Shown here one piece after another: positions 24,011 through 52,663 of a stretch of 64,000 nucleotides of DNA. The DNA is from an uncultured Bacteroidales bacterium. GTDB lineage: Bacteria; Bacteroidota; Bacteroidia; Bacteroidales; JAGOPY01. The stretch covers positions 249,527 to 313,526 of the forward strand of contig CAZAZE010000003.1 of assembly GCA_964489545.1 (NCBI GenBank), written 5' to 3'. Numbering within the stretch: position 1 is the stretch's first letter; every line of letters starts with the position of its first letter. The notes under the pieces are model-generated. The model had not been told where the DNA came from, made no database searches, and worked only from the letters and a program-made list of their open reading frames with translations. The position numbers and the translations under genes were made by a program.

Positions 24011-24058
24011 TTAATCCGGAATTTACCCGAATTATACCCGTCCGCCCGGAAAAATATT
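24011..24058 (-). promoter_or_regulatory. Bipartite GGGTAT-N15-CGGATTAA motif upstream of recJ
   Basis: Minus strand reads AATATTTTTCCGGGCGGAC-GGGTAT-N15-CGGATTAA; one of five copies in the window. Confidence 0.55.
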
Positions 24059-24064
24059 TTCCGT

Positions 24065-25309
24065 TCAGAATGTCGACCGCATCGCTTCCACGGGATCAAG
24101 GCGGGAAGCGTTCCAGGAAGGTACCAGCCCGGAGATAAACCCGATGGCCGCCGAAACAAACACCCCCAGCAGGATATTGGACTGCGTCAGCGTCAGGCTC
24201 ATATCGAAGGCCTGGGAGATGCCGAAGGACAGGAGGAACACGATGATCAGGCCCAGTATCCCCCCGAAAAGGGAAAGGAATACGGCCTCGAACAGGAACT
24301 GCAGCAGGATAAAATAGTTCTTCGCGCCCAGGGCTTTTTGTATCCCGATGATCCGGGTCCGCTCCTTGACCGAAACGAACATGATGTTGGCGATGCCAAA
24401 ACCGCCGACGAGCAGAGAGAACCCGCCAATGATCCAGCCGACCACGGCGATCACCCCGAAGAGCTGGTCAAATCCTTTGCTGATGATATCTGTCTGGTTG
24501 ATGGCGAAATTATCTTCCGCCCTGGGCTTTAATTTCCTTACCGAGCGCATGATCCCGGTAAGTTCATCTTTCATTTCATCCAGGCTGACGTTTGGTTTTG
24601 CTTTGACGATGACGGCGCCCTGGAGGTTCCGTGCATCGGTGTGATTGCGCGCGAAATTCACCGGGACGATCACCTGGTTGTCGGAAGAATTGCCAAAGAT
24701 GCTGCTCCCCTCCTTCTTCAGTACCCCGATCACCTCGACATTCACGCCGAACACCCGGATCTTTTTACCTACGGGATCGGGGACATTCATCAGGTTGGCG
24801 GCGATTTCGCTGCCAACGACCGCCACCGGCTTGCCGCTGAGAAACTCCGCCGGGGAGATGAACCGCCCCTCACTGATATCAACGGTCATGGCTTTGTCGT
24901 ATTCGTCGGCCACGATGATCACATCGGCATTGTCCATGGAATTGGTGCGGTATTTCAGGGTCTCGTTGACCCCGGCCATGTATGTGGCGGTCTGCGCGGT
25001 CTGGCTGCGGCGGCGGATCTCCTTCATCTCATTGAGCGAAGCCTCGGGCCGGTTGATGTATTTCCACCAGGGATAATCGCCGCCCATGGCCCAGGGCCAT
25101 TTCTGCACGAACAGCACATCGCTGCCCAGCGAGTTAATGCGTTCGCGGATGCCCGATTCCATCGAATCGAAGATGGTGAAGACCGAGATGATCGAAAAAA
25201 TCCCTATCGTGATCCCCAGCAGCGAAAGAAGCGTCCGGACCTTGTTCACCACAATTTCATGCAGCGCAAACAGGTAACTCTCATGCAACAGTTTCAGAAA
25301 TATTTTCAT
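24065..25309 (-). CDS. ABC transporter permease (MacB/FtsX family)
   Basis: VRTLLSLLGITIGI, GIANIMFVSVKERTRIIGIQKALGA, LDPVEAMR. Confidence 0.9.
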   Translation of the reverse strand: MKIFLKLLHESYLFALHEIVVNKVRTLLSLLGITIGIFSIISVFTIFDSMESGIRERINSLGSDVLFVQKWPWAMGGDYPWWKYINRPEASLNEMKEIRRRSQTAQTATYMAGVNETLKYRTNSMDNADVIIVADEYDKAMTVDISEGRFISPAEFLSGKPVAVVGSEIAANLMNVPDPVGKKIRVFGVNVEVIGVLKKEGSSIFGNSSDNQVIVPVNFARNHTDARNLQGAVIVKAKPNVSLDEMKDELTGIMRSVRKLKPRAEDNFAINQTDIISKGFDQLFGVIAVVGWIIGGFSLLVGGFGIANIMFVSVKERTRIIGIQKALGAKNYFILLQFLFEAVFLSLFGGILGLIIVFLLSFGISQAFDMSLTLTQSNILLGVFVSAAIGFISGLVPSWNASRLDPVEAMRSTF

Positions 25310-25412
25310 GACCGGCGTGCGGTGGTTCAGGGTGTAAAATTATACAATTGAAACGAGAATAATGCCTTATATTTGGTGGTTTGAACATTAATAGCGATAA
25401 AATCGGGATGAT

Positions 25413-26930
25413 ATGAAGAAAAAGATCGGCAGCGCGCTGATTTCAGTATACTATAAAGACGGTCTGGAAGAGATCGCCCGGAAGCTTTCCACCCTGGGAG
25501 TCACGTTATATTCCACCGGCGGGACTCATGATTTTCTCACCGGCCTGGGATTGAACGCCATTACCGTCGAATCGGTGACGGATTATCCTTCCATATTCGG
25601 CGGCCGGGTCAAAACTTTGCATCCCAAGGTGTTCGGCGGTATTCTCCATCGCCGCGACCATGCAGGCGACCGCGAAGAGGCGCTGCGGTATCAGGTCCCC
25701 CCGATCGACCTGGTGATCGTAGACCTGTACCCGTTTGAAGAGACCGTTGCGAAAACCGACGACGAGGAGGAGATCATCGAAAAGATCGATATCGGCGGCA
25801 TCTCGCTGATCCGGGCGGCCGCCAAGAACTACCGCGACGTGCTCATCGTTTCTTCTTCCGGACAGTATGCGGATCTGCTCCGGCTGCTGGAGGAAAAAGG
25901 CGGTTTTACGGACCTTGAGGACCGGCGGGGGTTTGCCGGACTGGCATTCGGGATGTCATCTCATTACGACACGGCCATACAGGAGTACTTCCACGGCGCG
26001 GATCCGCCCGCTTTCAGGAAGAGCATCCGGGGGAAGCAGGTGCTGCGTTACGGCGAGAACCCGCATCAGAAAGGGTTTTACTACGGCGACCTGTCGCGGG
26101 TGTTCACCCAGTTGCATGGCAAGGAACTGTCGTACAACAACCTGGGCGACCTGGAGGCGGCCATTGGCCTGATCGGGGAGTTCGACGAGCCCACCTTCGC
26201 GATCCTGAAGCACAACAACGCCTGCGGCTGCGCCAGCCGGCCATCCCCTGCCGAAGCCTGGAAAGCCGCGCTGGCGGGTGATCCGGTCTCTGCCTTTGGC
26301 GGGGTGCTCATCACCAACACGGAAATTGACGACGAAACCGCGGCGGAAATCGACACGCTGTTTTTCGAAATCCTGCTGGCTCCGGGCTATAAAAAAAGTG
26401 CCCTGGAACGGCTTCAAAGCAAGAAAAATAGAATACTTTTGCAGGGTGGGGCATACGATTTCCCGGCGCGGCAATTCAGGTCGGCGCTGAACGGCGTGAT
26501 CGAACAGGACAAAGACCTGAAGAGCGAGAAGATGGAAGACCTGCGCCCGGTGACCGACAGGAAGCCGACCGGTGAAGAAATCAACGATCTTCTTTTTGCC
26601 AACAAACTGGTCAAGCACACCCGTTCCAACGCCATTGTCCTGGCGAAAGACCGGCAGCTGATCGGCAGCGGGGCGGGGCAGACATCCAGGGTTGACGCCC
26701 TGAAGCAGGCCATCGCCAAAGCCCGTGAATTCGGATTTGACCTCCGGGGGGCCGTCATGGCTTCCGACGCGTTCTTCCCCTTTGCCGACTCGGTGGAAAT
26801 CGCCCACGGGGCCGGGATCACCGCGGTCATCCAGCCCGGCGGTTCGGTCCGCGACCAGGATTCCATCGATTTCTGCAGCCGCCACGGCCTGGCCATGGTG
26901 TTCACGGGAATACGCCATTTTAAACATTAA
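25413..26930 (+). CDS. purH: Bifunctional AICAR transformylase/IMP cyclohydrolase
   Basis: SALISVYYK, STGGT, GRVKTLHP, IDIGGISLIRAAAKN, RYGENPHQ, ASDAFFPF, IRHFKH. Confidence 0.97.
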   Translation: MKKKIGSALISVYYKDGLEEIARKLSTLGVTLYSTGGTHDFLTGLGLNAITVESVTDYPSIFGGRVKTLHPKVFGGILHRRDHAGDREEALRYQVPPIDLVIVDLYPFEETVAKTDDEEEIIEKIDIGGISLIRAAAKNYRDVLIVSSSGQYADLLRLLEEKGGFTDLEDRRGFAGLAFGMSSHYDTAIQEYFHGADPPAFRKSIRGKQVLRYGENPHQKGFYYGDLSRVFTQLHGKELSYNNLGDLEAAIGLIGEFDEPTFAILKHNNACGCASRPSPAEAWKAALAGDPVSAFGGVLITNTEIDDETAAEIDTLFFEILLAPGYKKSALERLQSKKNRILLQGGAYDFPARQFRSALNGVIEQDKDLKSEKMEDLRPVTDRKPTGEEINDLLFANKLVKHTRSNAIVLAKDRQLIGSGAGQTSRVDALKQAIAKAREFGFDLRGAVMASDAFFPFADSVEIAHGAGITAVIQPGGSVRDQDSIDFCSRHGLAMVFTGIRHFKH

Positions 26931-26960
26931 CCCGCATTTGCGCAAAACATAAGATACACA

Positions 26961-27983
26961 ATGGGACTCTTTTCATTCCTCACCAAGGAAATCGCCATTG
27001 ACCTCGGAACGGCCAACACCATCATCATTTACAACGACAAGGTGGTGGTCGACGAACCGAGCATCGTCGCCATCGAAAGGAACACAGGAAAGGTTATCGC
27101 TGTAGGGAAGAAGGCGATGATGATGCACGGGAAGACGCACGAGAACATCAAAACGATCCGGCCTTTGCGCGACGGCGTCATCGCCGACTTCAAAGCCGCC
27201 GAGATCATGATCCGGGAGATGATCAAAATGATCGGCTTCAAGAACAACGTATTCCCGCCGGCGCTCAAAATGGTCATCTGCATCCCCAGCGGCATCACCG
27301 AGGTGGAGGAGCGCGCGGTCAAGGATTCGGCCGAGCAGGCCGGCGCCAAGGAGGTCCGCCTGATCCACGAGCCCATGGCGGCCGCCATCGGGATCGGCAT
27401 CGACGTGCTCGAGCCCACCGGTAACATGATCATCGACATCGGGGGCGGCACCAGCGAGATCGCCGTCATCGCCCTCGGGGGCATCGTCAACAACAAATCC
27501 ATCCGCATCGCCGGCGACGACTTCAACGCCGACATCGAGGAATACATGCGCAAGCAGCACAATATCAACATCGGGGAGCGCACCGCCGAACGCATCAAGA
27601 TCGAGGTGGGCGCCGCCATGACCGATATCGACAACCCGCCCGACGATTTCCCGGTGCACGGTCGCGACATGCTCACCGGCATCCCCAAGGAAATCACGGT
27701 CAACTACGCCGAGATCGCCCATTCCCTCGACAAGTCGATCTCCAAGATCGAAGCCGCAGTGCTGAACGCCCTGGAAATGACCCCGCCCGAACTGGCGGCC
27801 GACATTTACCGCACCGGCATTTACCTCGCCGGCGGGGGTTCCATGCTCCGCGGACTCGACAAACGCCTCCACCTGAAAACCAAACTCCCGGTACACGTGG
27901 CCGAAGATCCCCTGCGGGCCGTGGCACGGGGCACCGGCATCGCACTGAAGAATTTCGATAAATTCACCTTCCTGATCAAGTGA
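26961..27983 (+). CDS. mreB: Rod shape-determining protein MreB
   Basis: IAIDLGTANT, IRPLRDGVIADF, IIDIGGGTSE, LAGGGSMLRG. Confidence 0.97.
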   Translation: MGLFSFLTKEIAIDLGTANTIIIYNDKVVVDEPSIVAIERNTGKVIAVGKKAMMMHGKTHENIKTIRPLRDGVIADFKAAEIMIREMIKMIGFKNNVFPPALKMVICIPSGITEVEERAVKDSAEQAGAKEVRLIHEPMAAAIGIGIDVLEPTGNMIIDIGGGTSEIAVIALGGIVNNKSIRIAGDDFNADIEEYMRKQHNINIGERTAERIKIEVGAAMTDIDNPPDDFPVHGRDMLTGIPKEITVNYAEIAHSLDKSISKIEAAVLNALEMTPPELAADIYRTGIYLAGGGSMLRGLDKRLHLKTKLPVHVAEDPLRAVARGTGIALKNFDKFTFLIK

Positions 27984-27984
27984 G

Positions 27985-28806
27985 ATGAGAAACCTCCTGG
28001 CATTTTTGTCAAGATACCAGTTTTTCTTCCTTTTCCTGATCTTCCTGGTCATCTCTCTTGTTCTGGTCTATAACAACAACTACTACCAGCGCTCGAAAGT
28101 GGTGGGCACCACCAGCCAGTTCACGGGCCGGTTCAACCAGGTTTATAAGAATTTTTCCGGGTACATCGACCTGAGAAAAGAAAACACGGCCCTGGCAGCC
28201 GAAAACGCACGGCTGAGGTCGTTTCTGCGCATCGGCACCGGCGGCATCCCCGATTCGCTGATCCGCCTGGAGACGGACCTGACCATGCGGTACATCAGCG
28301 CCCGGATCATCAGTAACTCTGTTCAGCGGCGCAACAATTACTTCATGATCGACAAAGGCTGGCGGCACGGCGTCAAAAAAGATATGGGCGTGGTGACACC
28401 GAATGGGGTCGTCGGCGTCATCATCGATGTGTCAGAAAATTTCAGCTCCGGTATCTCCGTGCTGCATAAAGACGCCCGCGTGAGCGGCCGGATCAAGAAA
28501 AACGACCAGCTGGTCAACATCTCATGGGACGGCATAAACTACCGCCTGGGGAGCCTGGGCCATATCCCGGCCCATGTCAGCCTCATGCCCGGCGACACCA
28601 TCCTCACCAGCGGCAATTCGCAGCTTTACCCCGAAGGCATCATGATCGGAACGGTTGATTATGTTGAAGACGAGCTGGATAACCTGTTCAAAAAAGGCAA
28701 GATCCGGTTTTCCATCGACTACAACCAGCTGACGCATGTGTATGTTGTGGAAAATACCTTCCGGGAAGAAATGAAACAGTTAAATATGGGCACTCCGGAT
28801 GAATAA
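27985..28806 (+). CDS. mreC: Rod shape-determining protein MreC
   Basis: N-terminal TM, coiled coil ENARLR, IDKGWRHGVKKDMGVV, GDTILTSG...PEGIMIG. Confidence 0.93.
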   Translation: MRNLLAFLSRYQFFFLFLIFLVISLVLVYNNNYYQRSKVVGTTSQFTGRFNQVYKNFSGYIDLRKENTALAAENARLRSFLRIGTGGIPDSLIRLETDLTMRYISARIISNSVQRRNNYFMIDKGWRHGVKKDMGVVTPNGVVGVIIDVSENFSSGISVLHKDARVSGRIKKNDQLVNISWDGINYRLGSLGHIPAHVSLMPGDTILTSGNSQLYPEGIMIGTVDYVEDELDNLFKKGKIRFSIDYNQLTHVYVVENTFREEMKQLNMGTPDE

Positions 28807-29314
28807 ATCGCTGCTGGCCAATACCGTCCGCTTCATTGTCCTGGTCCTGGCGCAGATCTACATCTTCGACAAGATCCAGGTAACCGGCTTCATCAACCCG
28901 CAGGTCTACGTGTTGTTCATCCTTATGCTGCCGTTTGAGATCGCGGGGTTCTGGCTGCTGGCGCTGTCGTTCCTGCTGGGCATCACCGTCGACATTTTCC
29001 AGCAGACGCCGGGTATGCACGCCGCAGCATCGGTCTTCCTTGCCTTCAGCCGCCCGGGCGTCATCCGCCTGGTCGGTAAAAAAGAAGACCTGGAGCCGTA
29101 CCAGTATCCGAACGTACGCGAATCCGGATCTCTCTGGTTCCTGGCCTACACCATGATCCTGGTCCTGCTCCATCATCTGTTCCTCTTCTACCTGGAAGTC
29201 TTCCGCTTCAGCGAATTTTTCCAGACCCTGCTGAAAGTGGTGGTCAATACCGTCATCACCACCATGATCATCATGCTCCTGCAGTTTTTGTTCTTTTCCA
29301 GGAAAAGAGATTGA
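28799..29314 (+). CDS. mreD: Rod shape-determining protein MreD
   Basis: Hydrophobic multi-TM protein after mreC; YVLFILMLP, GITVDIF...PGMHAAA. Confidence 0.88.
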   Translation: MNKSLLANTVRFIVLVLAQIYIFDKIQVTGFINPQVYVLFILMLPFEIAGFWLLALSFLLGITVDIFQQTPGMHAAASVFLAFSRPGVIRLVGKKEDLEPYQYPNVRESGSLWFLAYTMILVLLHHLFLFYLEVFRFSEFFQTLLKVVVNTVITTMIIMLLQFLFFSRKRD

Positions 29315-29355
29315 GTTTTTGTTTTTAGTTTTGTCACCTTAAAAAATCAACTGAT

Positions 29356-30471: not shown

Positions 30472-30477
30472 GAATCC

Positions 30478-31884: not shown

Positions 31885-31886
31885 GA

Positions 31887-33725: not shown

Positions 33726-33735
33726 GAGAATAAAT

Positions 33736-35286: not shown

Positions 35287-35330
35287 AAAATAATTCTATA
35301 TTTGCATTTCAAACCATTAAAGAGAAAGCT

Positions 35331-35795: not shown

Positions 35796-35823
35796 GCGCG
35801 ATAATATGCATTTAAATGTGAAC

Positions 35824-40622: not shown

Positions 40623-40630
40623 CCAAAGGT

Positions 40631-40677
40631 AAGATTTTTACTCCGGACCGGGTATAATTCCGGAAAATGCGGATTAA
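40631..40677 (+). promoter_or_regulatory. Bipartite GGGTAT-N14-CGGATTAA motif upstream of comF
   Basis: GGGTAT at 40650-40655, CGGATTAA at 40670-40677. Confidence 0.55.
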
Positions 40678-40696
40678 CAGGAAAAAGAATGATGAC

Positions 40697-41410
40697 ATGA
40701 AAACCGTGATCAATTTCCTCAGGGAATCGGCGGAGGACGTGCTCTGCCTGTTCTTTCCCAACCTGTGCGCGGGATGCGGCCGGCCGCTGCTGCGCGGCGA
40801 ATCCGTGATCTGCGCCCTGTGCCAGTTTCATCTTCCCAAAACTTACTTCCACAACGATCCCGACAATCCCTTGTCCCGCGCGTTCTGGGGCAGGGTGATG
40901 CTGGAATCGGCCGCTTCGTACGTTTATTTCCAGAAAGGCGGCACCATACAGCACCTGCTCCACCAGCTCAAATACAAGAACAGGCCGGACATCGCCTTTC
41001 AACTGGGGAAATGGTACGGCTCGGAGCTGGCCCTTGCGGATGATTTCCGGGATTGCGACCTGGTTGTGCCCGTTCCGCTGCATCCGGCCAAACAAAAACG
41101 CCGTGGTTACAACCAAAGCCAGCTGTTTGCGGAAGGCCTTTCGGCCAGGATGAACGCCCGGATAGAGACCCGGAGCCTCTACCGTAAGATCGATTCGAAG
41201 ACCCAGACGCGAAAAGCCCGGTTTGACCGCTGGGAGAATGTGGAGCACATCTTTGCCGTGCGCGATCCAGGTCGTCTGGCGGGGAATCATGTTCTGCTGG
41301 TCGACGACGTGGTGACCACCGGCGCCACGCTGGAAGCCTGCGCACAGGCCCTGCTTCTGGTACCGGGCGTCAGGATCAGCGTGGCCACGATCGCGTACGC
41401 CGGGATTTAG
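40697..41410 (+). CDS. comF: ComF family amidophosphoribosyltransferase-like protein
   Basis: CAGC...CALC Zn finger, VPVPLHP...RGYNQS, VLLVDDVVTTGATL. Confidence 0.9.
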   Translation: MKTVINFLRESAEDVLCLFFPNLCAGCGRPLLRGESVICALCQFHLPKTYFHNDPDNPLSRAFWGRVMLESAASYVYFQKGGTIQHLLHQLKYKNRPDIAFQLGKWYGSELALADDFRDCDLVVPVPLHPAKQKRRGYNQSQLFAEGLSARMNARIETRSLYRKIDSKTQTRKARFDRWENVEHIFAVRDPGRLAGNHVLLVDDVVTTGATLEACAQALLLVPGVRISVATIAYAGI

Positions 41411-41412
41411 GC

Positions 41413-44022
41413 TCAGCGCCGGCGCGCGAGGACGCAGGCGTGCCTGAAGCGGTGCGTTTTACCATCCATTCCCAGCGCTTCGGCCAGGATCACATAGATA
41501 CCGTCAGGGGCGGGGGTGCGGTCGTCGAGCAGACCGTCCCAGGTGTAGATCCCCTCTGTGCCCGGGAACTCCGCGTTCACCAGGTTCCGGGCCAGCCGGC
41601 CTCCGGAGGTGAACACCAGGATGCTCATCAACTTTCCCGGCGCATCGAATGAATACTGAATCCCCAGGTGGTCGTCCATCCCGTCGCCGTCGGGGGAGAA
41701 CAGTTCCGGGCTGACGGAGAATACTCCCCCGGTCGCCAATGCCTCCAGGCGCTGGGAATTCCGGTAGCCCGGCGTGCCAAATCCAGCCGTTTCCGCAGCG
41801 GAATACCAGTTTCCCCGGTCGAATCCCGATACCCCTGGGACAATGCGCTCCAGGGCGACCCCTTCCACCGAATTCAGCAGAGGATGGTGCATGTCTTCAT
41901 GGTACTTCATCCCGTCGATGATGCTTCCGCTGCCATCCAGGAGGAGCGCGCAACCCTCCTCGTTACTATATGCGGGCATTTGTGCTACCCTTTGGAGATG
42001 GAGCGGGTATGGGCAGAAATATTGCTGACTTACCCGGCCGGGGTCTTCACTGAGCAACAGATAACCGTCGGGTAGCAGAAAATGGCCATCCATCAGGAGG
42101 GGATATTTTGTCGTATCCGGTGGATTGGGTTCGGTTTCCTGCACTGAAGCCAGTGTAAGCCCGCTGAGACTGACGGTTTTTCCCAGGGGGTTATGGAGTT
42201 CAATATAGTCCGGGCCGTCGCCGAGGGGGTTGAACAGGATCTCATTGATGACCAGTGCGGCGCTGTCGCAGGGTTCCGGCCAGGCGAAGGATGCCCGGAG
42301 CTCCCGGCCGGATTTTTGGGCGATGCAATTGCACAGATCCCCGGAAACTACGACTTCCATGACCATTCCGGAAGGGATTGGCATATCCGTGACCAGGCCC
42401 ACGGTCCGGCTTTCCGGCGCCCCGGGAAGGGCCTGCGCCACCTGCATCAGCGGGGGATCAAATCGGTAGTGGCTGATGCCGGAAGCGGAAATGCTGTCGG
42501 GCACCTGCGAAAAGATCAGCTCCAGCAGATTGGAGTCTGCGACCCGAATGCCGGCAATCTCCATCTCTTCCTGACCCGTGACCGGAAACAGGTTGCCCCG
42601 TCCGGGAGTCCCTCCGGCGGGATGGGCCGATGCGCGCCAGTTGCGGTAGTCTTTACAGGGGCTGGTTGTATCCTGCATTTCCAGGGCCCACCCTCCTTCG
42701 GATTTTGCCGGATCACAATACCAGGAAGGATCATAGGCAAGCGCGCAAATCGTTTGCCCTTTGGGATCCATTAATCGCAGGGTAGTACCGTTGTTGGGCA
42801 GGCTGAAAGAAGGAATACCGGTTACGTTCCCGTGGTTGACCAGGGCTGCCGCGCCTTCGACGCTGCTGAGCAGGGCGTAGCTTCCCGGTGGCATGATGAC
42901 GGGGGGCAGAACCTGGACCGATGATCCGGACTGGAACCGCCAGCCCGCCAGGTTGAGCTCAAACCCGCTCCTGTTGAGCAATTCAACATATTCCGCCTCC
43001 GGAAGGCTGACGATGGGTGAAGGATCGGCCATGATCTCTGTGAAAATCACTTCCCAGGGCCTGCATTCGTAATAGAAAACCGATAGCAGGGCTTCTTCCA
43101 TGATGTTGCCGGCATCGTCCCGGATATTTCTTACCATGAGGGTATAGGATGCCCCGTTTTCCATCTGATATTCAAAAAACAAATGCACCTGTTCCGGTTC
43201 GAGGAGGCGAAAGGCCTCAAACGGATGGCTCATCCCCGGAGTCAGCTCATAATTGAGCACTTCGGAAGCGCTGCTTTCCGCTACCGCCTCCGAGAAGATG
43301 AGCCGGATTTCATCCCGCCCCACGACCTCCGCGGCGACCAGTTCCGGCGGCAGTGTATCGACGATCATCGGGCCGGCATAGAGGTCATCAAAATAGAATT
43401 TGGAAGCGTTAGAGCTGGTATACTGGCAAAAGAGACCGAAAAACGCTCCATCCACTACCGTGGTTTCGGTCAGGGTCCCGACCGTGTCCGCCGGGTTTCC
43501 TCCGGCCGCGTCCGCCAGGAAGGTCCACAGCCCTTCCGCATCCCGCGTGATCCGTATCCGCAGGCTGTTGGTGGAATTCCCGGTGAACAGCGCATCCAGG
43601 GTGAGCAGCCGGATCATCTCCAGGGAATCCTGCCGGAAGAACGACACGCTGTCGTCGGCCCCTCCCGCCTGGATAAAAAAACCCTCCAGCGGCGATTTCA
43701 GGTCGCTCTGGTCGGAACACAGGTAGATCCTGGCGAAATTTCCGGCAGAGGTGTTCATGCTCATTTTGATCCAGAATTGCCATTCCATGGCGCTGAAACT
43801 GCCGCTTTCTGCAACCAGCGACGACTGCCCGGCCTCGGGCGCATCAAGCTGCAGTGCAGGGCGCATGTTCTCCGGCACGGCGGAGGATACGCTGATCTTG
43901 AAATGGCCGGTATCGCCCATCCAGGCAGGATTTTGCGTGAAATCTCCGTCGTCGAACTGTTCAAACACCTGGGCGCGCAGGCAACAAGGGAGCACGATAA
44001 TCAGAAATAACAATGTTCTCAT
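41413..44022 (-). CDS. Lamin-tail-domain surface protein with a CHU_C/gliding-motility-type C-terminal domain
   Basis: Signal peptide; VIFTEIMADP...EYVELLN and VINEILFNP...DYIELHN (two LTD-like domains), Ig-like segments, GTPG; C-terminal FSPDGDGMDD...YTWDG. Confidence 0.78.
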   Translation of the reverse strand: MRTLLFLIIVLPCCLRAQVFEQFDDGDFTQNPAWMGDTGHFKISVSSAVPENMRPALQLDAPEAGQSSLVAESGSFSAMEWQFWIKMSMNTSAGNFARIYLCSDQSDLKSPLEGFFIQAGGADDSVSFFRQDSLEMIRLLTLDALFTGNSTNSLRIRITRDAEGLWTFLADAAGGNPADTVGTLTETTVVDGAFFGLFCQYTSSNASKFYFDDLYAGPMIVDTLPPELVAAEVVGRDEIRLIFSEAVAESSASEVLNYELTPGMSHPFEAFRLLEPEQVHLFFEYQMENGASYTLMVRNIRDDAGNIMEEALLSVFYYECRPWEVIFTEIMADPSPIVSLPEAEYVELLNRSGFELNLAGWRFQSGSSVQVLPPVIMPPGSYALLSSVEGAAALVNHGNVTGIPSFSLPNNGTTLRLMDPKGQTICALAYDPSWYCDPAKSEGGWALEMQDTTSPCKDYRNWRASAHPAGGTPGRGNLFPVTGQEEMEIAGIRVADSNLLELIFSQVPDSISASGISHYRFDPPLMQVAQALPGAPESRTVGLVTDMPIPSGMVMEVVVSGDLCNCIAQKSGRELRASFAWPEPCDSAALVINEILFNPLGDGPDYIELHNPLGKTVSLSGLTLASVQETEPNPPDTTKYPLLMDGHFLLPDGYLLLSEDPGRVSQQYFCPYPLHLQRVAQMPAYSNEEGCALLLDGSGSIIDGMKYHEDMHHPLLNSVEGVALERIVPGVSGFDRGNWYSAAETAGFGTPGYRNSQRLEALATGGVFSVSPELFSPDGDGMDDHLGIQYSFDAPGKLMSILVFTSGGRLARNLVNAEFPGTEGIYTWDGLLDDRTPAPDGIYVILAEALGMDGKTHRFRHACVLARRR

Positions 44023-44036
44023 GGCTTTTTTCCCTG

Positions 44037-44083
44037 TTTATCCGCTTTTTTTGAGAATATACCCGGTCACGGTGAAAATATTT
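44037..44083 (-). promoter_or_regulatory. Bipartite GGGTAT-N14-CGGATAAA motif upstream of the lamin-tail gene
   Basis: Plus strand shows TTTATCCG at 44037-44044 and ATACCC at 44059-44064. Confidence 0.55.
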
Positions 44084-44124
44084 TCCGGCCAAATGACTAA
44101 TTTTGCGCTTTTAAAGATGATGCG

Positions 44125-45120: not shown

Positions 45121-45133
45121 AGATGCTGCTGTC

Positions 45134-46060
45134 GTGAACATTTATCATCATATCGACCTCTTCCAGCCCGTCCGCAACCCTGTGGTGAGCGTGGGCACCT
45201 TCGACGGAGTGCACCGGGGGCACCAGGAGATCTTCCGGATCATGACCGAAGAAGCCAGAAATTGTGATGGAGAAACCGTTGTGGTAACTTTTTACCCGCA
45301 TCCCCGGCTGGTCATTCACCCCGACAGCCGCAACCTCAGGTTCATCAACACCCAGGAGCGCAAGTACGAGATCATCCAGCGCAGCGGGATCGACCACCTC
45401 ATTGTGATGCCGTTCACCCGGGAATTCGCCAACCTATCGGGGGCGGAATTCGTGAAACGCTTCCTGGTCGACCGGATCAGAACGCATAAACTGATCGTGG
45501 GCTACGACCATCATTTCGGTAAAGACCGCCTGGGCAGTTCCATCGAGCTGCGCGGGCTGGGAAAGATGCACGGATTCGACGTCAGGGAGGTGCCCGCATT
45601 GTCCGTCGACGGGATATCGGTCAGCTCCACCAAGGTCAGGGATGCGTTGAACCGGGGCGATATCCGCCTGGCCAACATGCTGCTCGGCTATGATTACTCG
45701 ATCTCTGGGAAAGTGGTTTACGGAAACCGCATCGGCCGCACACTGGGATTTCCCACGGCCAACATCGAGCTGGAAGACGAATACAAGCTGATCTCTGCGG
45801 TCGGCGTCTACGCGTGCAAAGTGGATCACCACGGGGTGATCTACAAAGGGATGGGCAACATCGGCTATCGCCCCACCATCGACAGGGGCAACCTGACCAT
45901 CGAGGTGAACATTTTTGATTTTGACCAGGAGATCTACGGCGACCGCATCATCATCTATTTCCTGGAGCGGATCCGCGACGAAGTGAAATTCGACAACCTG
46001 GCGGCCCTGCGCGAACAACTGATCATCGACCGGGGAAGGGTGCAGGAGATACTACGTTAG
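45134..46060 (+). CDS. ribF: Bifunctional riboflavin kinase/FAD synthetase
   Basis: GTFDGVHRGH, VGYDHHFG, SSTKVR, GRTLGFPTAN, NIGYRPT. Confidence 0.96.
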   Translation: MNIYHHIDLFQPVRNPVVSVGTFDGVHRGHQEIFRIMTEEARNCDGETVVVTFYPHPRLVIHPDSRNLRFINTQERKYEIIQRSGIDHLIVMPFTREFANLSGAEFVKRFLVDRIRTHKLIVGYDHHFGKDRLGSSIELRGLGKMHGFDVREVPALSVDGISVSSTKVRDALNRGDIRLANMLLGYDYSISGKVVYGNRIGRTLGFPTANIELEDEYKLISAVGVYACKVDHHGVIYKGMGNIGYRPTIDRGNLTIEVNIFDFDQEIYGDRIIIYFLERIRDEVKFDNLAALREQLIIDRGRVQEILR

Positions 46061-46113
46061 TTCCAGGGTTTCAGGGTTCCAGGTTCCAGAGTTCCAGGTT
46101 CCAGAGTTCCATA
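46060..46113. repeat. Tandem array of 7 units (GTTCCAGG-like, 7-8 bp), downstream arm of cassette 1
   Basis: gttccagg gtttcagg gttccag gttccaga gttccag gttccaga gttccata. Confidence 0.92.
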
Positions 46114-46120
46114 GTTATTC

Positions 46121-46510
46121 TTATTTGTATTTTCTGCCCTTTAATTCGGTCTCTTTCAAGTATTTGATTAGTTTATTTAAAGACCTGATAATTTCTAAAG
46201 ACTGTTCATTTAACTCCTGGAAACGATTGGTTTCCAAATACAACAGACGTGCTGCAATAATCAGCTGGCAGCGCAATTCTCCACAGGATCCTTTGGCAAT
46301 ATGAAGAAAATTAAGGAATTCTTTATTACCATCTCTTTCAAAACCTTCAGCGATATTAGATGCAATTGAAATAGCTGACTTTCTGACCTGATTGGTTAGT
46401 ACATAATCTTTAGAAAATGGGCCACGGCTAGTCTCATGGTAAATTTGTGTCGTTAAATCAATGGATTTCTGCCACACCTCCATTTCTTCGAATCGTTTAA
46501 ACGTGCTCAT
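46121..46510 (-). CDS. Four helix bundle protein (TIGR02436/PF05635 IVS-protein family)
   Basis: FEEMEVWQKS, LTNQVRKSAISIASNIAEGFER, FLHIAKGSCGELRCQL; visibly AT-rich. Confidence 0.92.
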   Translation of the reverse strand: MSTFKRFEEMEVWQKSIDLTTQIYHETSRGPFSKDYVLTNQVRKSAISIASNIAEGFERDGNKEFLNFLHIAKGSCGELRCQLIIAARLLYLETNRFQELNEQSLEIIRSLNKLIKYLKETELKGRKYK

Positions 46511-46601
46511 AGTGATAAATTATTTTTATCAGTTAATTGCATTTTGACTCAAAAAATACCCGGTTGTTAATAAAAATACCCAGCTTGCTCAGAAAGAAAA
46601 C

Positions 46602-46680
46602 TCTGGAACTATGGAACTGTGGAACTGTGGAACCCTGAAACCCTGGAACCCTGGAACCTGGAACCCTGGAACCCTGGAAC
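46602..46680. repeat. Tandem array of 10 units (CCTGGAAC-like), upstream arm of cassette 1
   Basis: tctggaac tatggaac tgtggaac tgtggaac cctgaaac cctggaac cctggaac ctggaac cctggaac cctggaac; reverse complement of the 46060 array units. Confidence 0.92.
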
Positions 46681-46682
46681 TC

Positions 46683-47150
46683 TTACCTCTTCCTGACAAT
46701 CAGTCCGACCTGCATGATCCCGGCGAGATCGGCCTGCGACATGGCGCTGGAAACTTCGATGCGGCAGATGCCGGGTTCCGTGAAACGAAAGCCCTCCCAG
46801 GCCAGGAAATTCAAATCCCAGAGTGCGCCCATTCCGTTGCCCAGGTTTTTGCCTTCGGCGTCCTTCACCGGGATCCGGAAGCTGTTGTTCCGCGTTTCGC
46901 CCGAAGGAGTTTCCATGTTGAAATAAATGTCCAGGTTCCGGTAAGGGATATCGGTATGGTGGCGTATGGCCACAAGGATGTCGTATTCCGTGTCGATATC
47001 CTGGATTTCCACGTCAAACACTTTGACATCGAAGCGGTTCCACACCAGCCCCCGGGTATCGAGGTGTTCTTCGTAGATCTTTCCCGGGCTGCAGGCGCCC
47101 AGGATCAGCAGGAAAGGTATGATCAGGGATATCGTTCTCATCGTCTTCAT
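46683..47150 (-). CDS. gldH: Gliding motility lipoprotein GldH
   Basis: Lipobox LGAC; IAIRH-like LVAIRHHTDIPYRNL, GNGMGALWD, YRI-like CRIEVSSAM, GIMQVGLIV. Confidence 0.78.
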   Translation of the reverse strand: MKTMRTISLIIPFLLILGACSPGKIYEEHLDTRGLVWNRFDVKVFDVEIQDIDTEYDILVAIRHHTDIPYRNLDIYFNMETPSGETRNNSFRIPVKDAEGKNLGNGMGALWDLNFLAWEGFRFTEPGICRIEVSSAMSQADLAGIMQVGLIVRKR

Positions 47151-47254
47151 CAACAAAAATAATTCAAATCGGTTTAAAAACATGTTCAAGGATTATCCTG
47201 TCACCGGTCATTCTTCCGTTAATCATCCTTATTTTCGCCCTGAAATTGATTTCA

Positions 47255-47878
47255 ATGCCGGCGAAAAAGTATTACGTGGTTTGGAGCGGGCTCAGGCCGG
47301 GGGTGTATGAGACCTGGAAGGAGTGCGAGGCACAGATCCGGGGCGTGGACGGCGCCGTGTACAAATCATTTCCCGACCGGGAAAGCGCCGTTAAGGCCCT
47401 GAATTCGGACTGGAGGGAATATATCGGGAAGAAGAAGGAGGAGCCGGCGAAGAAGGTGCAGCGCGACCGGCAGAGCATACGGGAAAGTATCAGCGTCGAC
47501 GCCGCCTGCAGCGGGAACCCGGGCGTTCTGGAATACCGGGGCGTGGAAACCGCTACCGGCCGGCAGCTGTTCCACCAGGGCCCTTTTCCACTGGGAACTG
47601 TGAACATCGGCGAATTTCTGGCCATCGTGCACGCGCTGGCCTACCTTCAGAAATACGGCAGCAACCTGCCGGTCTATTCCGATTCACGCACTGCCATCAA
47701 ATGGACCCGGGATAAAGCCATCAAGACCAATCTACCGAGAAACAGCAAAACGGAAGCTCTTTTTGACCTGGTCGACCGGGCGATCAACTGGCTGAAAATC
47801 CATGATTATCCCAATCAAATCTTAAAATGGGAAACGGACCGGTGGGGAGAAATCCCGGCGGATTTCGGGAGGAAGTGA
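47255..47878 (+). CDS. rnhA: Ribonuclease HI with an N-terminal hybrid-binding (viroplasmin-like) domain
   Basis: KKYYVVWSG...PGVYETW, SVDAACSGNPG, NIGEFLAIVHAL, YSDS, KWETDRWGEIPADFGRK. Confidence 0.93.
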   Translation: MPAKKYYVVWSGLRPGVYETWKECEAQIRGVDGAVYKSFPDRESAVKALNSDWREYIGKKKEEPAKKVQRDRQSIRESISVDAACSGNPGVLEYRGVETATGRQLFHQGPFPLGTVNIGEFLAIVHALAYLQKYGSNLPVYSDSRTAIKWTRDKAIKTNLPRNSKTEALFDLVDRAINWLKIHDYPNQILKWETDRWGEIPADFGRK

Positions 47879-47879
47879 A

Positions 47880-49235
47880 CTACCCTGTCGCCAGCCTGAC
47901 AGAGATATCAATTTTTATCATGAAATGCAGGCCGATGCCGAGGACGATCCTCAGGAACAGCAGCAGGGCCAGCATCATGGCCAGGTAGCCTATATTGATC
48001 TTCCTGACTTTTTTCACCTTCAGCAGGTTCAGCCTGGGTTTTACCCTGGGGTTGAAGAAGGGGGGAATGACGAGGAACATCATGCTGAAGAACATCAGGG
48101 TTTCGTAAGGATATTCAAATCCCCGGGGCAAGCGGAGCAGCAGCATGATCACGGTTCCGAGGAACCAGGGGATGAGCATCTGCAGTAAGAAAAACGCGGT
48201 CCGGTTTTCCGGCTTGATCCGGTTGAGGGAGTCGGAGGTTTCCAGGATCTTTTCCGCGGAATAATAGCCAATCAGGCCCAGGACAAATAATGAGATGATG
48301 GAGAACATGAATTTGAAGGCCGTATTCATGTACATCCATGCCGCCACATAGCCGAAGCCTTCAGAGGTGATGATGCCGCTGGGCAGCGCGCCGAAGAAAT
48401 GATTGAACAGGTGGAACGAGGTCCAGAGCACGAACAGCTTTTGCAATCCGATCAGCCGGCGGTGCTTGAATACCACCCTGAGGAGAAAAAGACCCAGGAA
48501 AAGGCAGAAAAACGGAGGGATGCCCGTTACGAGCAGGATATTGAACCGGTTCCAGAGCGTAGAATGATCGTTGAATTTCAGGTCATAGTAGTATAAGGTC
48601 GAATCCAGTCCGTAAACGGATGCGACCAGCATACTGGTGAGCCAGTAGAACAGGTAGACGAGGACATAAGTGGCCACGAAGATCAGCAGCGAGTTCACCA
48701 TAATGGTGAGGCTTCGGTAGAATTCGCTGCGCTGGGAGAACAGCGGTATTCTTTTGGCCCGGGCCTCTTCGCTTTCGGCGGAAATGGTGAAAAGTTTCTG
48801 CCCCAGGGAGCGGCCGGATTCCATTTTCCGGTATTCCTTCTGGTGTTTCCGGCGCATCTTGTTCTTGAAGCGTTCCTCCCGGCGGATTTCCCGGCGCTGG
48901 GCTCTTAGTTTGAAGTAATACCGGATGGACTCCGCAATGGATTTTTTTCGCCGGGGGTATGTTTCCTGCCCGCCATCAATGGGAAACTCAACCGGTTTTG
49001 TTTTTTCAGGCGAAGATGGAGTCTGCTTACTGATGGGGATTCCTTCCTGTGGATCAGGCTTGGTCTCGATGGAATGCTCCCTGTGTTCCTGGGGTTTTTC
49101 GTCCGGAAAGTGGATTCCGGGGAACGACGACCGGTGGGTTTTGTATTTATTGCGGCCCAGCAGCCGGTCCCAGAAACTCCTGCGGTGTTTGCGGCGCTTC
49201 GATGAACTGCGGTGGTGTTGGTCGGATCCGGCCAT
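47880..49235 (-). CDS. Hypothetical multi-pass membrane protein with a long basic/charged N-terminal region
   Basis: About 160 aa Arg/Lys/Glu-rich N-terminus, then about 7 hydrophobic segments; no family recognised. Confidence 0.6.
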   Translation of the reverse strand: MAGSDQHHRSSSKRRKHRRSFWDRLLGRNKYKTHRSSFPGIHFPDEKPQEHREHSIETKPDPQEGIPISKQTPSSPEKTKPVEFPIDGGQETYPRRKKSIAESIRYYFKLRAQRREIRREERFKNKMRRKHQKEYRKMESGRSLGQKLFTISAESEEARAKRIPLFSQRSEFYRSLTIMVNSLLIFVATYVLVYLFYWLTSMLVASVYGLDSTLYYYDLKFNDHSTLWNRFNILLVTGIPPFFCLFLGLFLLRVVFKHRRLIGLQKLFVLWTSFHLFNHFFGALPSGIITSEGFGYVAAWMYMNTAFKFMFSIISLFVLGLIGYYSAEKILETSDSLNRIKPENRTAFFLLQMLIPWFLGTVIMLLLRLPRGFEYPYETLMFFSMMFLVIPPFFNPRVKPRLNLLKVKKVRKINIGYLAMMLALLLFLRIVLGIGLHFMIKIDISVRLATG

Positions 49236-49310
49236 ATGATTGTTCTTCGCTATGGTTGATTTAAATTGTTTTACTTTAGCCGCAAACTTCTATCATTATA
49301 CTGGCGAAAA

Positions 49311-49901
49311 ATGAAAAAGTTTATCGAAGAGATCGGTAAAAGTATAAAAAAATACAAGCTGCATGTTCTCAAGGACGTCCTCATCTTTGTGATCATCACG
49401 CTGACCATTCATTATTCTTACAGATACTGGGCCAGGAAACAATACTGGCCCGTGACCTCTGTAATGAACGCATCACATGAATTCATGTCCCAAAAAGTGT
49501 ATGACCAGAGTACATGGCTGATCGATAATTTGCTGGGTATTCCCATAACAGTGGACGAGACGGGGCGTGTGATCTATTTTGAAAACAACGGATTTATCGG
49601 TATCAACCACAGTTGTTCAGGGCTAAAGCCCATCCTGCAGTTTGTCTTGCTGATGCTGCTTTTCCCCGGGCCCTGGAGGCATAAGGCCTGGTTCATCCCA
49701 ATGGGTGTAATGCTGGTTCATTTAACCAATCTATTCAGGATCTCGGGCCTGGCTGTCGTGACGATCACCGTGCCGCAATACTGGGATTTCGCACACGACA
49801 ATATCTTCCGGCCGTTTTTTTACGTGGTGATCTTTTTACTGTGGGTATGGTGGGTGGAGCGATTCAGGAGCAAAGCTCCACGCCACCTTAACGAAGGGTG
49901 A
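49311..49901 (+). CDS. Exosortase/archaeosortase family protein
   Basis: INHSCSGLK (catalytic Cys), TNLFRI (Arg), AHD (His); multi-TM. Confidence 0.82.
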   Translation: MKKFIEEIGKSIKKYKLHVLKDVLIFVIITLTIHYSYRYWARKQYWPVTSVMNASHEFMSQKVYDQSTWLIDNLLGIPITVDETGRVIYFENNGFIGINHSCSGLKPILQFVLLMLLFPGPWRHKAWFIPMGVMLVHLTNLFRISGLAVVTITVPQYWDFAHDNIFRPFFYVVIFLLWVWWVERFRSKAPRHLNEG

Positions 49902-50814
49902 AGGTAGTATGCCCGATGATCGTGTTCTCACAGAAAATATCAACATGATATAAGCCCGCCATCATCTCCTGGTTCGTATATTCTTTCTTCCAATAAAGGC
50001 AAAGATCCATGGACTGGTTTTCATAATTGATCGTCTCCATGATGGAGTATTGCAGCAATTCGCCCTGGTATTCGAAGGCATAATCGTCGAGCCGGCCTTT
50101 GACCAGGATTTCCTGGTCAGGACGGGCGATGCGGATGTACACGTCTTTTCTGCCCGGCGCTGCGATCTCATTCTCACCGATGGTGAAGCATATTTTGACC
50201 TGGTCGGTCCGCTGCACTTTGTCTGTTTCCACTTCCTTATCCCCGCCGCTGCGTGAGCGGATGCCCGTGGCTTTCATGTTGACCGCTCTCAGCTGGGCGG
50301 CAATCTCCACCTTGCCCGATAGAACCTCCCGGTCTTTCTCGATTTCCTCTTTTTCTTTTTTCAGATCTTTCAGATCCTTCCGGATGGCCACGTTTTCCTC
50401 AGTAAGTGCGGCGTTGACCCGGTAGAGGGAATCCATCTGCCGGACGTACCCCTGGGCGATCACCTGGAGCTGGCCCAGTTTCTTCTTCACTTTGTAATAC
50501 TCCCATTCCGTATCGAGCAGCCGGCGGATCTCTTTGGCATTGGCCTGAATCAGGCTGTCCTTGACCATCAGCGTATCCGACAGCCTGCCGTATTCGGTTT
50601 TCACCTTTTCATGCTCCACCAGGAGCGAATCCAGTTCCAGCTGCAATTCGGTCCGTTGTTGTTCTTTCTCGGCCAGGAGGCCTTTCAGGTTGCTCCGGGT
50701 TTGCATCAGGATGATGATGAGCGCGATCACCACGATGGCCAGAACCGCCGCGATGGCGGTCAGGGTGGTGTTTGAGCGGCCGCGTGCCTTGTTATCCGAT
50801 GAGGTTTGTTCCAT
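49888..50814 (-). CDS. Membrane-anchored coiled-coil protein, hypothetical
   Basis: One N-terminal TM, long heptad-rich coiled coil, C-terminal beta domain (VKICFTI, YHVDIF). Confidence 0.65.
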   Translation of the reverse strand: MEQTSSDNKARGRSNTTLTAIAAVLAIVVIALIIILMQTRSNLKGLLAEKEQQRTELQLELDSLLVEHEKVKTEYGRLSDTLMVKDSLIQANAKEIRRLLDTEWEYYKVKKKLGQLQVIAQGYVRQMDSLYRVNAALTEENVAIRKDLKDLKKEKEEIEKDREVLSGKVEIAAQLRAVNMKATGIRSRSGGDKEVETDKVQRTDQVKICFTIGENEIAAPGRKDVYIRIARPDQEILVKGRLDDYAFEYQGELLQYSIMETINYENQSMDLCLYWKKEYTNQEMMAGLYHVDIFCENTIIGHTTFTLR

Positions 50815-50910
50815 AAACCGGTGATTTACTGCAAAAATAGTAAAAAATGCAACCGGATTCCAGTGAATCGGTTGCAAGGGACGAATTGAATAATCGAAAT
50901 GGAGCGGTTC

Positions 50911-52083
50911 TTATTTCAGATGATCTGGTACTATTTCCCGCAACCTCTCCATAGCCATCTCCAGCGTTTGCCGCGGACAGCCGATGTTCACGCGCTGAAA
51001 GCCTTCACCTCCCGGGCCGAAAACCGTGCCATCCACAAAACCCAGTCCGGCTTTATGGATGAGCAGGCGCTTCAGCTCATCTGCCGGCAGATTCCATTCC
51101 CGGAAGTCGAGCCAGAGCATATAGGTGGCTTCCGCCGGACTGACCCTGATCCCAGGGATGTTACGGGAAATGTAATCCATCACGAACCGGACGTTCCCCT
51201 TCAGGTACTCCATCAGTTCTTCAAGCCATGGGTCGCCGTAGCGATACGCCGCCTCCGCAGCAGTGATCCCGAAGATATTTGCGCTCAGGTGCACCCTTTC
51301 TTCTGCAGTTTTGAACCGTTCGCGGAGTTTTTCATCGGAGATGATGATGGACGAGGAATACAGACCGGCCAGGTTGAAGGTCTTGCTCGGGGCGATGCAG
51401 GTAATGGTGTTCCCGGCGATCTCTTCCGACAGCGTGGCGAGCGGGATATGCCGGTGCGGATCCAGCACCAGGTCGCAGTGAATTTCATCGCTCACGATCA
51501 GCACGCCATGCTCTAAGCCCTTCGCTCCGAGCCACTCCAGTTCTTCACGGCTCCAGCAGCGGCTGACGGGATTATGCGGGTTGCAGAGGATCATCATTTT
51601 CGCCCCGTCGCGCATCTTCCGCTCCAGGTCTTCAAAGTCGATGGAATACACCCCGTCGCGCTCCGCCAGCTGGTTCAGGACCAGCTCACGCCCGTTCTTT
51701 TCGACGCAGGTGAAAAACGGGAAATACACCGGCGGCTGGATGATGATCCGGTCGCCGGGCTCGGTGAAGGCCTGCACGATCACGTTCAATCCCGTCACCA
51801 CCCCGGGACTGAACAGGATCCAGTCTTTTTCAATGGCCCAGCCGTGGCGGCGTTTTTGCCAGCCGATGACCGATTCGTAATAGCTTTCCGGGATGATGGA
51901 GTACCCGAACACGGGATGCTCTGCGCGCTGGCGGATGGCTTCTGCAACAAAGGGCGGCACCGCAAAATCCATGTCCGCCACCCACATCGGGATCACATCC
52001 TCCCGGCCGAAATAAGTTTTGCGCAGGTCGAACTTGACGCAATTCGTCCCGGCCCGTTTTATGGGTTGATCAAAGTTGAACAT
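50911..52083 (-). CDS. patB: PatB/MalY family PLP-dependent C-S lyase/aminotransferase
   Basis: True start MFNFDQP at 52083; IPMWVADMDF, LCNPHNP, SDEIHCD, APSKTFNLAG, ATYMLWLD, RVNIGCP. Confidence 0.88.
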   Translation of the reverse strand: MFNFDQPIKRAGTNCVKFDLRKTYFGREDVIPMWVADMDFAVPPFVAEAIRQRAEHPVFGYSIIPESYYESVIGWQKRRHGWAIEKDWILFSPGVVTGLNVIVQAFTEPGDRIIIQPPVYFPFFTCVEKNGRELVLNQLAERDGVYSIDFEDLERKMRDGAKMMILCNPHNPVSRCWSREELEWLGAKGLEHGVLIVSDEIHCDLVLDPHRHIPLATLSEEIAGNTITCIAPSKTFNLAGLYSSSIIISDEKLRERFKTAEERVHLSANIFGITAAEAAYRYGDPWLEELMEYLKGNVRFVMDYISRNIPGIRVSPAEATYMLWLDFREWNLPADELKRLLIHKAGLGFVDGTVFGPGGEGFQRVNIGCPRQTLEMAMERLREIVPDHLK

Positions 52084-52093
52084 ACTGAAAAGA

Positions 52094-52213
52094 GACTGTA
52101 GGACGGTAGGACGGTAGGACTGTAAGACTGTAGGACGGTAAGACTGTAGGACGGTAAGACTGTAGGACTGTAGGACGGTAAGACTGTAGGACTGTAAGAC
52201 TGCTGGACTGCAG
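52094..52213. repeat. Tandem array of 15 x 8 bp (GACKGTAR), upstream arm of cassette 2
   Basis: Units gactgtag, gacggtag, gactgtaa and gacggtaa; the last two are degenerate (gactgctg, gactgcag). Confidence 0.95.
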
Positions 52214-52288
52214 CACTTCAAGGAAAGATATTAACAGACCGGGTATTTTTTGGAATTTACCGGATAAACCGGTATAAAATGTCTTTTT

Positions 52289-52660: not shown

Positions 52661-52663
52661 ATC

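Follow-up and report, generated by a model that had tools for sequence, protein, structure and literature searches.

Group 4 extracytoplasmic function (ECF) sigma factors, such as SigW, SigX and SigM of Bacillus subtilis and RpoE of Escherichia coli, belong to sigma/anti-sigma modules in which a small TIGR02937 sigma has its promoter motif at its own gene. AAC cores in the -35 box and CGT cores in the -10 box are common, not universal, among ECF groups, and a T-tract following the -35 box is a known feature of B. subtilis ECF promoters. In Firmicutes, competence has a dedicated sigma, ComX/SigX with its cin-box or SigH in staphylococci and lactobacilli, with a shared box at comEA/comEC, comF, dprA, ssb and radC and at accessory genes whose function is unclear. 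A few Bacteroidota are known to be naturally transformable, Porphyromonas among them. Another is Riemerella, where ComEC, DprA, ComF, RecA and four unknown proteins are essential and no regulator is listed (PMC8459023). The main text of the ECF re-classification paper mentions neither competence nor ComEC (PMC7826278), and our literature search found no paper on Bacteroidota in which comEC or competence is tied to an ECF sigma. Here we describe a bipartite motif, GGGTAT-N14/15-CGGATWAA, that recurs in a 64,000-nt stretch of the genome of an uncultured Bacteroidales bacterium (contig C3, 249527-313526, hereafter the window; the assembly has 3.94 Mb in 51 contigs at 52.6% GC). Comparison of sequences suggests that the motif is probably the cognate, autoregulated promoter of an ECF-type sigma for competence and DNA processing encoded on contig C6. 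That the programme amounts to true natural competence we hold to be slightly better than an even chance.

The window has four exact matches to the pattern, compared with none in 100 dinucleotide-preserving shuffles, and a pattern search returned them with the positions and strands that an earlier note on this DNA had given (Table 1). Reading the locus also bore out a degenerate fifth copy, in which the first box, CCGGGTATTTTTT, is perfect (score 20.9) and the second is weak (0.8), for a position weight matrix (PWM) score of 21.7 versus 42-49 for the other four. Each of the five lies between genes and faces a start codon at 14-38 nt. The distances, read directly at the five loci, are 38 nt at recJ, 19 nt at comF, 14 nt at the gene of a lamin-tail surface protein, and 20 and 22 nt at two four-helix-bundle genes.

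To the rest of the genome we applied the exact pattern, which gave 48 matches versus none in a reversed control, and a slightly relaxed regular expression, which gave 49 copies. A two-box PWM with a 13-16 nt spacer, controlled with the reversed, non-complemented genome, yielded 72 raw matches at a score of at least 20 (one in the control) and 60 at a score of at least 25 (none in the control). After de-duplication 64 sites remained at the lower threshold, 55 of them outside a greedy open reading frame (ORF) model covering 92.7% of the genome; the other nine fall in over-extended or spurious ORFs. Essentially all of the sites lie between genes and face an ORF downstream. A check for equal frequency inside genes found no matches within genuine coding sequence.

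The genome-wide scan called for by the earlier note returned about 60 sites with a strong enrichment for DNA uptake and processing genes downstream, and what had been proposed there from recJ and comF, a DNA-processing or competence regulon, now extends to comEC (through an operon), comEA, comM, dprA, radC, ssb, a recQ-like gene, topA and nth, all behind the same box. Single-copy targets recognized with Pfam and NCBIfam include a ComEA-like protein with three HHH_3 repeats, ComF, the Mg-chelatase-like ComM, RadC, SSB, RecJ, endonuclease III (nth), a secreted Exo_endo_phos_3 (EEP) nuclease, the lamin-tail protein and a DUF2851 protein, as well as a LexA-like XRE protein with HTH_3 and Peptidase_S24 domains. 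The motif also precedes a DEAD/RecQ-like helicase, likewise recognized with these databases, that carries a ComF-like phosphoribosyltransferase (PRTase) domain at its C-terminal end. This RecQ-PRTase fusion is 673 aa long and starts 42 nt past the motif copy at 5085-5113 (minus strand) of contig C5. The topA and dprA assignments come from reading the translated sequences and not from a family search; the dprA site is weaker, with AGGTATTAAT as its second box. Five small gene families make up much of the remainder: Avd-like four-helix-bundle proteins, GxxExxY PD-(D/E)XK proteins, ORF6N proteins, IS200/RAYT-like Y1 enzymes and YhcG nucleases. The gene content resembles that of the ComX and SigH regulons. 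Unlike those, the set here lacks a pilus operon and recA, its box is unrelated in sequence to the cin-box, its sigma is of the ECF type, no homologue of ComX, and from Bacteroidota, a membrane partner takes the place of a peptide-pheromone circuit, and more than half of the promoters belong to multi-copy cassette genes.

The sigma gene is itself among the targets, with a motif copy (C6:9761-9789) that ends 9 nt before its ATG. Its product, 187 aa long, fits a sigma with only regions 2 and 4; it scores 67.2 bits against TIGR02937 (cut-off 42.9) over residues 24-156, while Pfam calls Sigma70_r2 and not region 4 separately. The generic ECF model is its best family, and SigH models reach only 22-23 bits, far under their cut-offs. 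The sigma stop codon is shared, as ATGA, with the start codon of a gene for a 225-aa protein that has one transmembrane helix; this gene is followed by comEC, encoding a 705-aa protein with a ComEC_N-term match (TIGR00360) of 73.6 bits versus a cut-off of 36.5. The comEC gene comes under the motif via the sigma operon. As in ECF modules, there is translational coupling between the sigma and a single-pass membrane protein encoded downstream, and the overlapping single-helix partner is kept in all four genera of the family; its position and topology make it a putative anti-sigma. By analogy, the module would work as an ECF sigma/anti-sigma switch with positive autoregulation and a gene content like that of the Firmicutes ComX and SigH regulons. 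Two cysteines in the region-4 part of the sigma (C133 and C168) are invariant across 21 homologues from different families, and could represent a redox- or metal-sensitive feature.

The motif is conserved at orthologous promoters. Each of ten genomes of the genus has 24-48 matches to the exact pattern, compared with zero or one in 31 genomes of other genera and none in the reversed control. It stands before comF in each of the ten species of the genus, at about 140-190 nt upstream in two of them, and three other species have hairpin insertions between the motif and the comF ATG. The comF upstream regions L062, L066 and L068, from genomes G007, G004 and G003, contain perfect palindromic hairpins such as TACCGACGGGTTAACCCGTCGGTA; the palindrome CGACGGGTTAACCCGTCG also occurs twice in the genome studied here (C5:118082 and 120157). 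At dprA the motif is likewise present in ten of ten species, with the same unusual second box, and is found also in two other genera of the family, g3 and g4. The sigma promoter has it in all eight orthologues recovered from the genus. The other three genera of the family (g2-g4) encode a sigma orthologue (50% and 42% identity) and an overlapping partner with no comEC downstream, and their sigma promoters carry diverged forms: CCGGGTAT...CCGATTAA in g2, ACAGGTAT...TGGATAAA in g3 and ACAGGTATTTTTT...CCGATAAA in g4. In g4 the promoters of the sigma gene, comF and dprA all read CAGGTAT in place of CGGGTAT, and the sites therefore co-vary. A relaxed pattern, GGTATWTTT-N9-12-GATWAA, finds 10-29 sites in each genome of the family versus zero or one in five other families and zero to two in controls. 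At the loci sampled from g2-g4 it precedes comM, ssb, nth, comF and the sigma gene along with four-helix, ORF6N, RAYT and IS200-like genes; a topA match comes from G008, of the same genus. Because both groups of genes lie under the pattern in g2-g4, the competence/DNA-processing set and the cassette families are both features of the family.

Beyond the family, homologues of the sigma, found by a profile search of genome contigs with a five-sequence alignment, are widespread in environmental Bacteroidales, with some in Cytophagales, Saprospiraceae and Flavobacteriaceae. For 131 homologues we inferred a maximum-likelihood tree and set against each tip the 75 nt that precede the gene. The motif in these upstream stretches tracks the sigma clades. 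Members of the family clade (f1, support 100/92) have C(G/A)GGTATWTTTT...GATWAA; a 51-member clade (support 100/97) has GTATTACCTTTT-N10-(C/T)GGATWAA; and several other clades have GGGTTACCTTTT...CAGGATCAA or CAGAATTAA. The T-tract and ATWAA are kept in all of them. Inside the 51-member clade is a paralogue from the same genome (C4:121971-122531, minus strand; 42% identity) with GTATTACCTTTT-N10-TGATAAA as its own promoter. Autoregulated ECF promoters classically show just this pattern, in which two paralogous sigmas are each preceded by a separate version of one architecture; neither a repressor nor an activator model predicts it. As in known ECF modules, the motif has two boxes at a fixed spacing and a T-tract past the upstream box, the promoter co-evolves with the sigma clade and paralogues have distinct boxes. 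The differences are that the boxes here have no AAC or CGT cores, that the partner matches no anti-sigma family, and that the regulon, of about 60 promoters, comprises DNA uptake and processing genes and cassette genes, not envelope stress genes.

The paralogue has its own TPR-containing partner with a single transmembrane helix, in which only a faint zf-HC2 match (E = 0.28) was found. About four sites match its box; they precede a pair encoding a type IX secretion system (T9SS)-type surface protein and a CHAT-TPR protein, and a transporter, with no competence genes among them, and the paralogue looks to serve a separate small regulon. One of its sites is divergent; there the gene of the T9SS-type surface protein comes first and that of a TPR/CHAT-like protein of 1142 aa comes next. 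We also considered whether an order-wide GTATTACC/GGTTACC motif belongs to orthologues of the C6 sigma, and rejected this, as it belongs to sister clades that include the paralogue. Regulons of the GTATTACC/GGTTACC type are small, with one to eight matches per genome, near control, and the targets inspected were not competence genes.

The earlier note had offered two options, a promoter for an alternative, ECF-like sigma and a site for a dimeric regulator. The sigma half of that proposal is supported comparatively by the motif at its own ECF sigma gene and by covariation over the 131 homologues, and the dimeric regulator is the less economical half. In its most concrete form the latter would be a tandem activator site, for example of a LytTR-like response regulator (ComE) that binds direct repeats about 21-22 bp apart (CCGGGTAT and CCGGATTA) and recruits RNA polymerase. 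Both boxes do start with CCGG followed by A/T-rich sequence, and their centres are about two helical turns apart, but they are conserved as different sequences, not as repeats, and between box 2 and start codons 1-20 nt off there is neither room nor signal for a core promoter. Further, box 1 turns to GTTACC in other clades while box 2 stays ATWAA, and the autoregulatory, clade-tracking pattern is seen at no regulator gene other than the sigma. We consider such a site improbable.

A profile of 58 strong sites shows the conserved motif to be larger than first described. In its extended form, with about 60 copies genome-wide, it consists of an A6T5 tract, (A)CCGGGTATWTTTT, a 14-15 bp spacer, CCGGATWAA-YAGG and an A-rich stretch. 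The core reads (A)CCGGGTAT(A/T)TTT(T), 3-4 variable nt, a W5 tract, CCGGAT(T/A)AA(C/T)AGG and the A-rich stretch, and there is essentially no variation in (A)C-CGGGTAT-(A)-TTT(T). Of the 58 sites, 43 have a spacer of 14 nt and 15 have one of 15 nt. An A-run at -19 to -14 and a T-run at -14 to -10, relative to the C of CGGGTAT, turn the WATTTTY element that the earlier note had seen upstream of four copies into a real and general feature. The W5 tract is A5 or T5 interchangeably, which argues for recognition as DNA rather than as RNA. No sigma-54-like pattern is present at the sites.

The profile also bears on the main alternative, a housekeeping sigma-A promoter with a LexA-like operator. According to this model box 1 would be a weak -7 element, transcription would start in the A/T tract and a repressor would sit on the CCGG-containing boxes; the repressor could be the motif-bearing XRE-HTH/S24 LexA-like protein, making the set an SOS-like DNA-damage regulon. 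Like the Bacteroidota housekeeping promoter (-33 TTTG, -7 TAnnTTTG), the motif is A/T-rich, and box 1, reading TA(t/a)(a/t)TTT, contains TAnnTTT. A start site upstream of box 2 would also make it easier to accommodate an ATG so close behind box 2. Published Bacteroidetes SOS regulons share ssb, recQ and radC with the targets here, which include an XRE-S24 gene (PMC8565304). As the earlier note had held, the motif is nonetheless unlike TAnnTTTG: none of the 58 sites has that element in register, the invariant G is missing from every one, the upstream T-run lies 10-14 nt from box 1 and not at the roughly 19-20 nt expected of a -33 TTTG, and the sites have an extra, strongly conserved box downstream. 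The Bacteroidetes LexA boxes, GGA-N5-TCC as well as CTAA-N5-TTAG, are short palindromes without a fixed orientation (PMC8565304) and, unlike them, the motif is asymmetric; within 60 nt on either side, the first palindrome occurs at one of the 58 sites and the second at none. Nor does a repressor predict motif variants that track sigma clades, including paralogues within one genome. On this evidence we regard a housekeeping promoter with an operator as unlikely. No link could be made to the PM2 promoter of Bacteroides thetaiotaomicron, as its sequence is absent from the text of the paper. PM2 is described as having near-palindromic -10/-30 boxes and a connection with oxidative stress (PMC7366714).

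Returning to the autoregulated ECF promoter, we infer sigma binding, the -35/-10 assignment, the transcription start, the anti-sigma role of the partner and the outcome in natural transformation. A signal would free the sigma from its membrane partner. The holoenzyme would then recognize two boxes, a -35-like one that adjoins a T-tract, CCGGGTAT(A)TTTT, and a -10-like one 14-15 bp downstream, CGGAT(T/A)AA, assisted by the A6T5 tract as an UP-like element 10-20 bp further upstream. This reading, with box 1 at -35 and box 2 at -10, is favoured by the place of the A/T tract, too near box 1 for a -33 element, by ATWAA staying invariant in all clades, by the dprA variant GGTATTAAT and by the -35 box with a following T-tract known from Bacillus ECF promoters. 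Transcription would start a few nt past TTAA, in the conserved YAGG or the A-rich stretch, giving very short A-rich leaders. From its own promoter the sigma would amplify its synthesis while co-inducing uptake genes (comEC, comEA, comF and those of the lamin-tail surface protein and the secreted nuclease) and processing genes (dprA, comM, ssb, radC, recJ, topA, nth and those of the RecQ-like helicase and the LexA-like repressor). It would also induce nearly all copies of the four-helix-bundle, GxxExxY, ORF6N, IS200/RAYT-like and YhcG genes, with the promoter lying inside the cassettes.

Several observations weigh against an ECF competence promoter. The boxes, CCGGGTAT and CGGATTAA, are without the common AAC (-35) and CGT (-10) cores, and the 14-15 bp between them, as defined here, is short for an ECF promoter. 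Box 1 (TATATTTT) is partly like the sigma-A -7 box of Bacteroidota, and because of this resemblance an alternative geometry can be drawn in which box 1 is the -7 element and box 2 is transcribed or an operator. Several start codons lie 1-9 nt past box 2 (9 nt at the sigma gene, 5 nt at comEA), which under the proposed geometry requires leaderless or near-leaderless mRNAs. Two digester metatranscriptomes contain the organism, as assembled contigs without 5'-end resolution; in three regions these contigs span the motif at flat depth and break at repeat arrays, and the sigma-partner-comEC operon has depths similar to those of its neighbours. The 225-aa partner matches no family in Pfam or NCBIfam, anti-sigma families included, and recA has no motif site. 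Next to the sigma, comEC is found only within the genus, being absent from that position in 24 other families and in g2-g4, and so the adjacency is not used as a family-wide argument. The lineage is uncultured, from sludge and digester samples, and is not known to be naturally transformable. Structurally, the motif agrees with an ECF promoter in the features that can be tested and departs from it only in the AAC/CGT cores, which are common and not universal.

Table 1. Motif copies in the window with the genes they precede, and the sigma gene on contig C6. Positions are those of the window unless a contig is named.
Feature	Position	Strand	Evidence
Motif copy, 15-nt spacer, putative recJ promoter	24011..24039	-	Exact match; PWM 42.9; upstream A/T tract at about 24049-24060
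recJ (DHH, DHHA1, RecJ_OB domains)	22215..23972	-	Pfam; start codon 38 nt past motif
Motif copy, 14-nt spacer, putative comF promoter	40650..40677	+	Exact match; PWM 48.9; kept at comF orthologues in 10/10 species of the genus
ComF-family phosphoribosyltransferase-like protein	40697..41410	+	Pfam PF00156
Motif copy, 14-nt spacer, putative promoter of lamin-tail surface protein	44037..44064	-	Exact match; PWM 42.3
869-aa exported protein with lamin-tail domain	41413..44022	-	Pfam LTD, 69 bits vs cut-off 34.3
Degenerate motif copy in cassette 1, upstream of four-helix-bundle gene	46533..46561	-	Box 1 intact, box 2 GCAATTAA; PWM 21.7
Four-helix-bundle protein (TIGR02436, Avd-like)	46121..46510	-	NCBIfam, 123.6 bits
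Motif copy, 14-nt spacer, in cassette 2, upstream of four-helix-bundle gene	52241..52268	+	Exact match; PWM 43.7
Four-helix-bundle protein (TIGR02436)	52289..52660	+	NCBIfam, 90.7 bits
ECF-type sigma, 187 aa	C6:9799-10359		TIGR02937, Pfam Sigma70_r2; motif at C6:9761-9789

For the ComF-family product in Table 1, the best NCBIfam matches are TIGR00201 comF and GntX, both under the equivalog cut-off. The lamin-tail protein is a candidate DNA-binding component of the cell surface. Elsewhere in the genome, five strong copies of the motif (PWM 43-53; C1:318498, C20:37247, C4:161724, C8:16695 and C19:49624) have no convincing ORF within about 130 nt. An Rfam scan of ten motif sites without an obvious ORF gave no match at the gathering score; such copies may drive small RNAs or small unannotated ORFs.

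The idea that the cassettes of the window are plugged into the regulon gains from the genome as a whole, where small multi-copy families lie behind over half of the copies, at about 34 of 63 promoters. Clustering of the downstream proteins gave 15 four-helix-bundle, eight GxxExxY, three ORF6N, five IS200/RAYT-like and two YhcG/DUF1016 proteins, and one YraN-like protein was read by eye. Counted by gene, the motif precedes 14 of the 21 four-helix-bundle genes in the genome, all nine GxxExxY genes, all four ORF6N genes and five of the six IS200/RAYT-like genes. At both four-helix-bundle genes of the window the motif lies between an upstream repeat array and the ORF, and the cassettes therefore bring the promoter along.

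Arrays of short word repeats flank the cassette genes of the window (46060-46120, 46580-46685, 52094-52191 and 52662-52720). The same kind of array is found at C18:52238-54570 and C5:184805, flanking motif-driven genes or in their leaders. Array words of motif-driven cassettes include GTTCCACA..., GGACTGTAA..., CACAAAAGCAC... and GCAGATTTCGC..., and it is at fixed points in such arrays that the metatranscriptome assemblies break. Tandem runs of three motif-headed units, 0.8-1.9 kb apart, occur at C31:35913-39501 and C18:52238-54570. One set joins two identical YhcG/DUF1016 genes with an ORF6N gene; in the other, a small ribbon-helix-helix-like ORF has a GxxExxY gene on either side. These tandem units resemble cassette arrays.

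With over half of its copies before multi-copy genes flanked by repeat arrays, and some in tandemly duplicated units (C31 and C18), the motif might instead be an RNA leader motif, or the part conserved at the end of a repeat family or mobile cassette, spread by cassette proliferation with no role in transcription initiation. Against this stand its orthologous positions before the single-copy genes comF, dprA, sigma, ssb, comM, topA and nth across species and genera, as well as its strict orientation and start-codon distance, which argue for a promoter. The A5/T5 interchange speaks against an RNA structure, and Rfam matches none. This explanation appears very improbable.

If the ECF-type sigma and its promoter act as proposed, a family of the Bacteroidales may have a dedicated competence sigma, a functional analogue of streptococcal ComX gated by a membrane partner, with a regulon that includes almost every copy of the five small gene families across four genera. 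We put this broader statement forward tentatively, as possible and short of probable. The wholesale inclusion of the four-helix-bundle, GxxExxY, ORF6N and RAYT-like families would be an unusual and potentially important extension of a known type of regulon, and would provide the first shared expression context for these common, uncharacterized genes. If true, the five families would act on incoming or single-stranded DNA during transformation, either as accessory or defence factors of the host or as selfish cassettes whose spread takes advantage of competence. The two paralogous sigmas would offer a clean natural example of divergence in promoter specificity between ECF paralogues (GTTACC versus GGTAT). 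For the missing parts of the DNA uptake machinery of Bacteroidota (PMC8459023), the regulon names as candidates the lamin-tail protein, the secreted EEP nuclease, the DUF2851 protein, the RecQ-PRTase fusion and unannotated lipoproteins. Natural competence in this Bacteroidota group would thereby gain its first regulatory handle. Over-expression of the sigma or removal of its partner is suggested to induce competence, and could give genetic access to Bacteroidales that are hard to manipulate.

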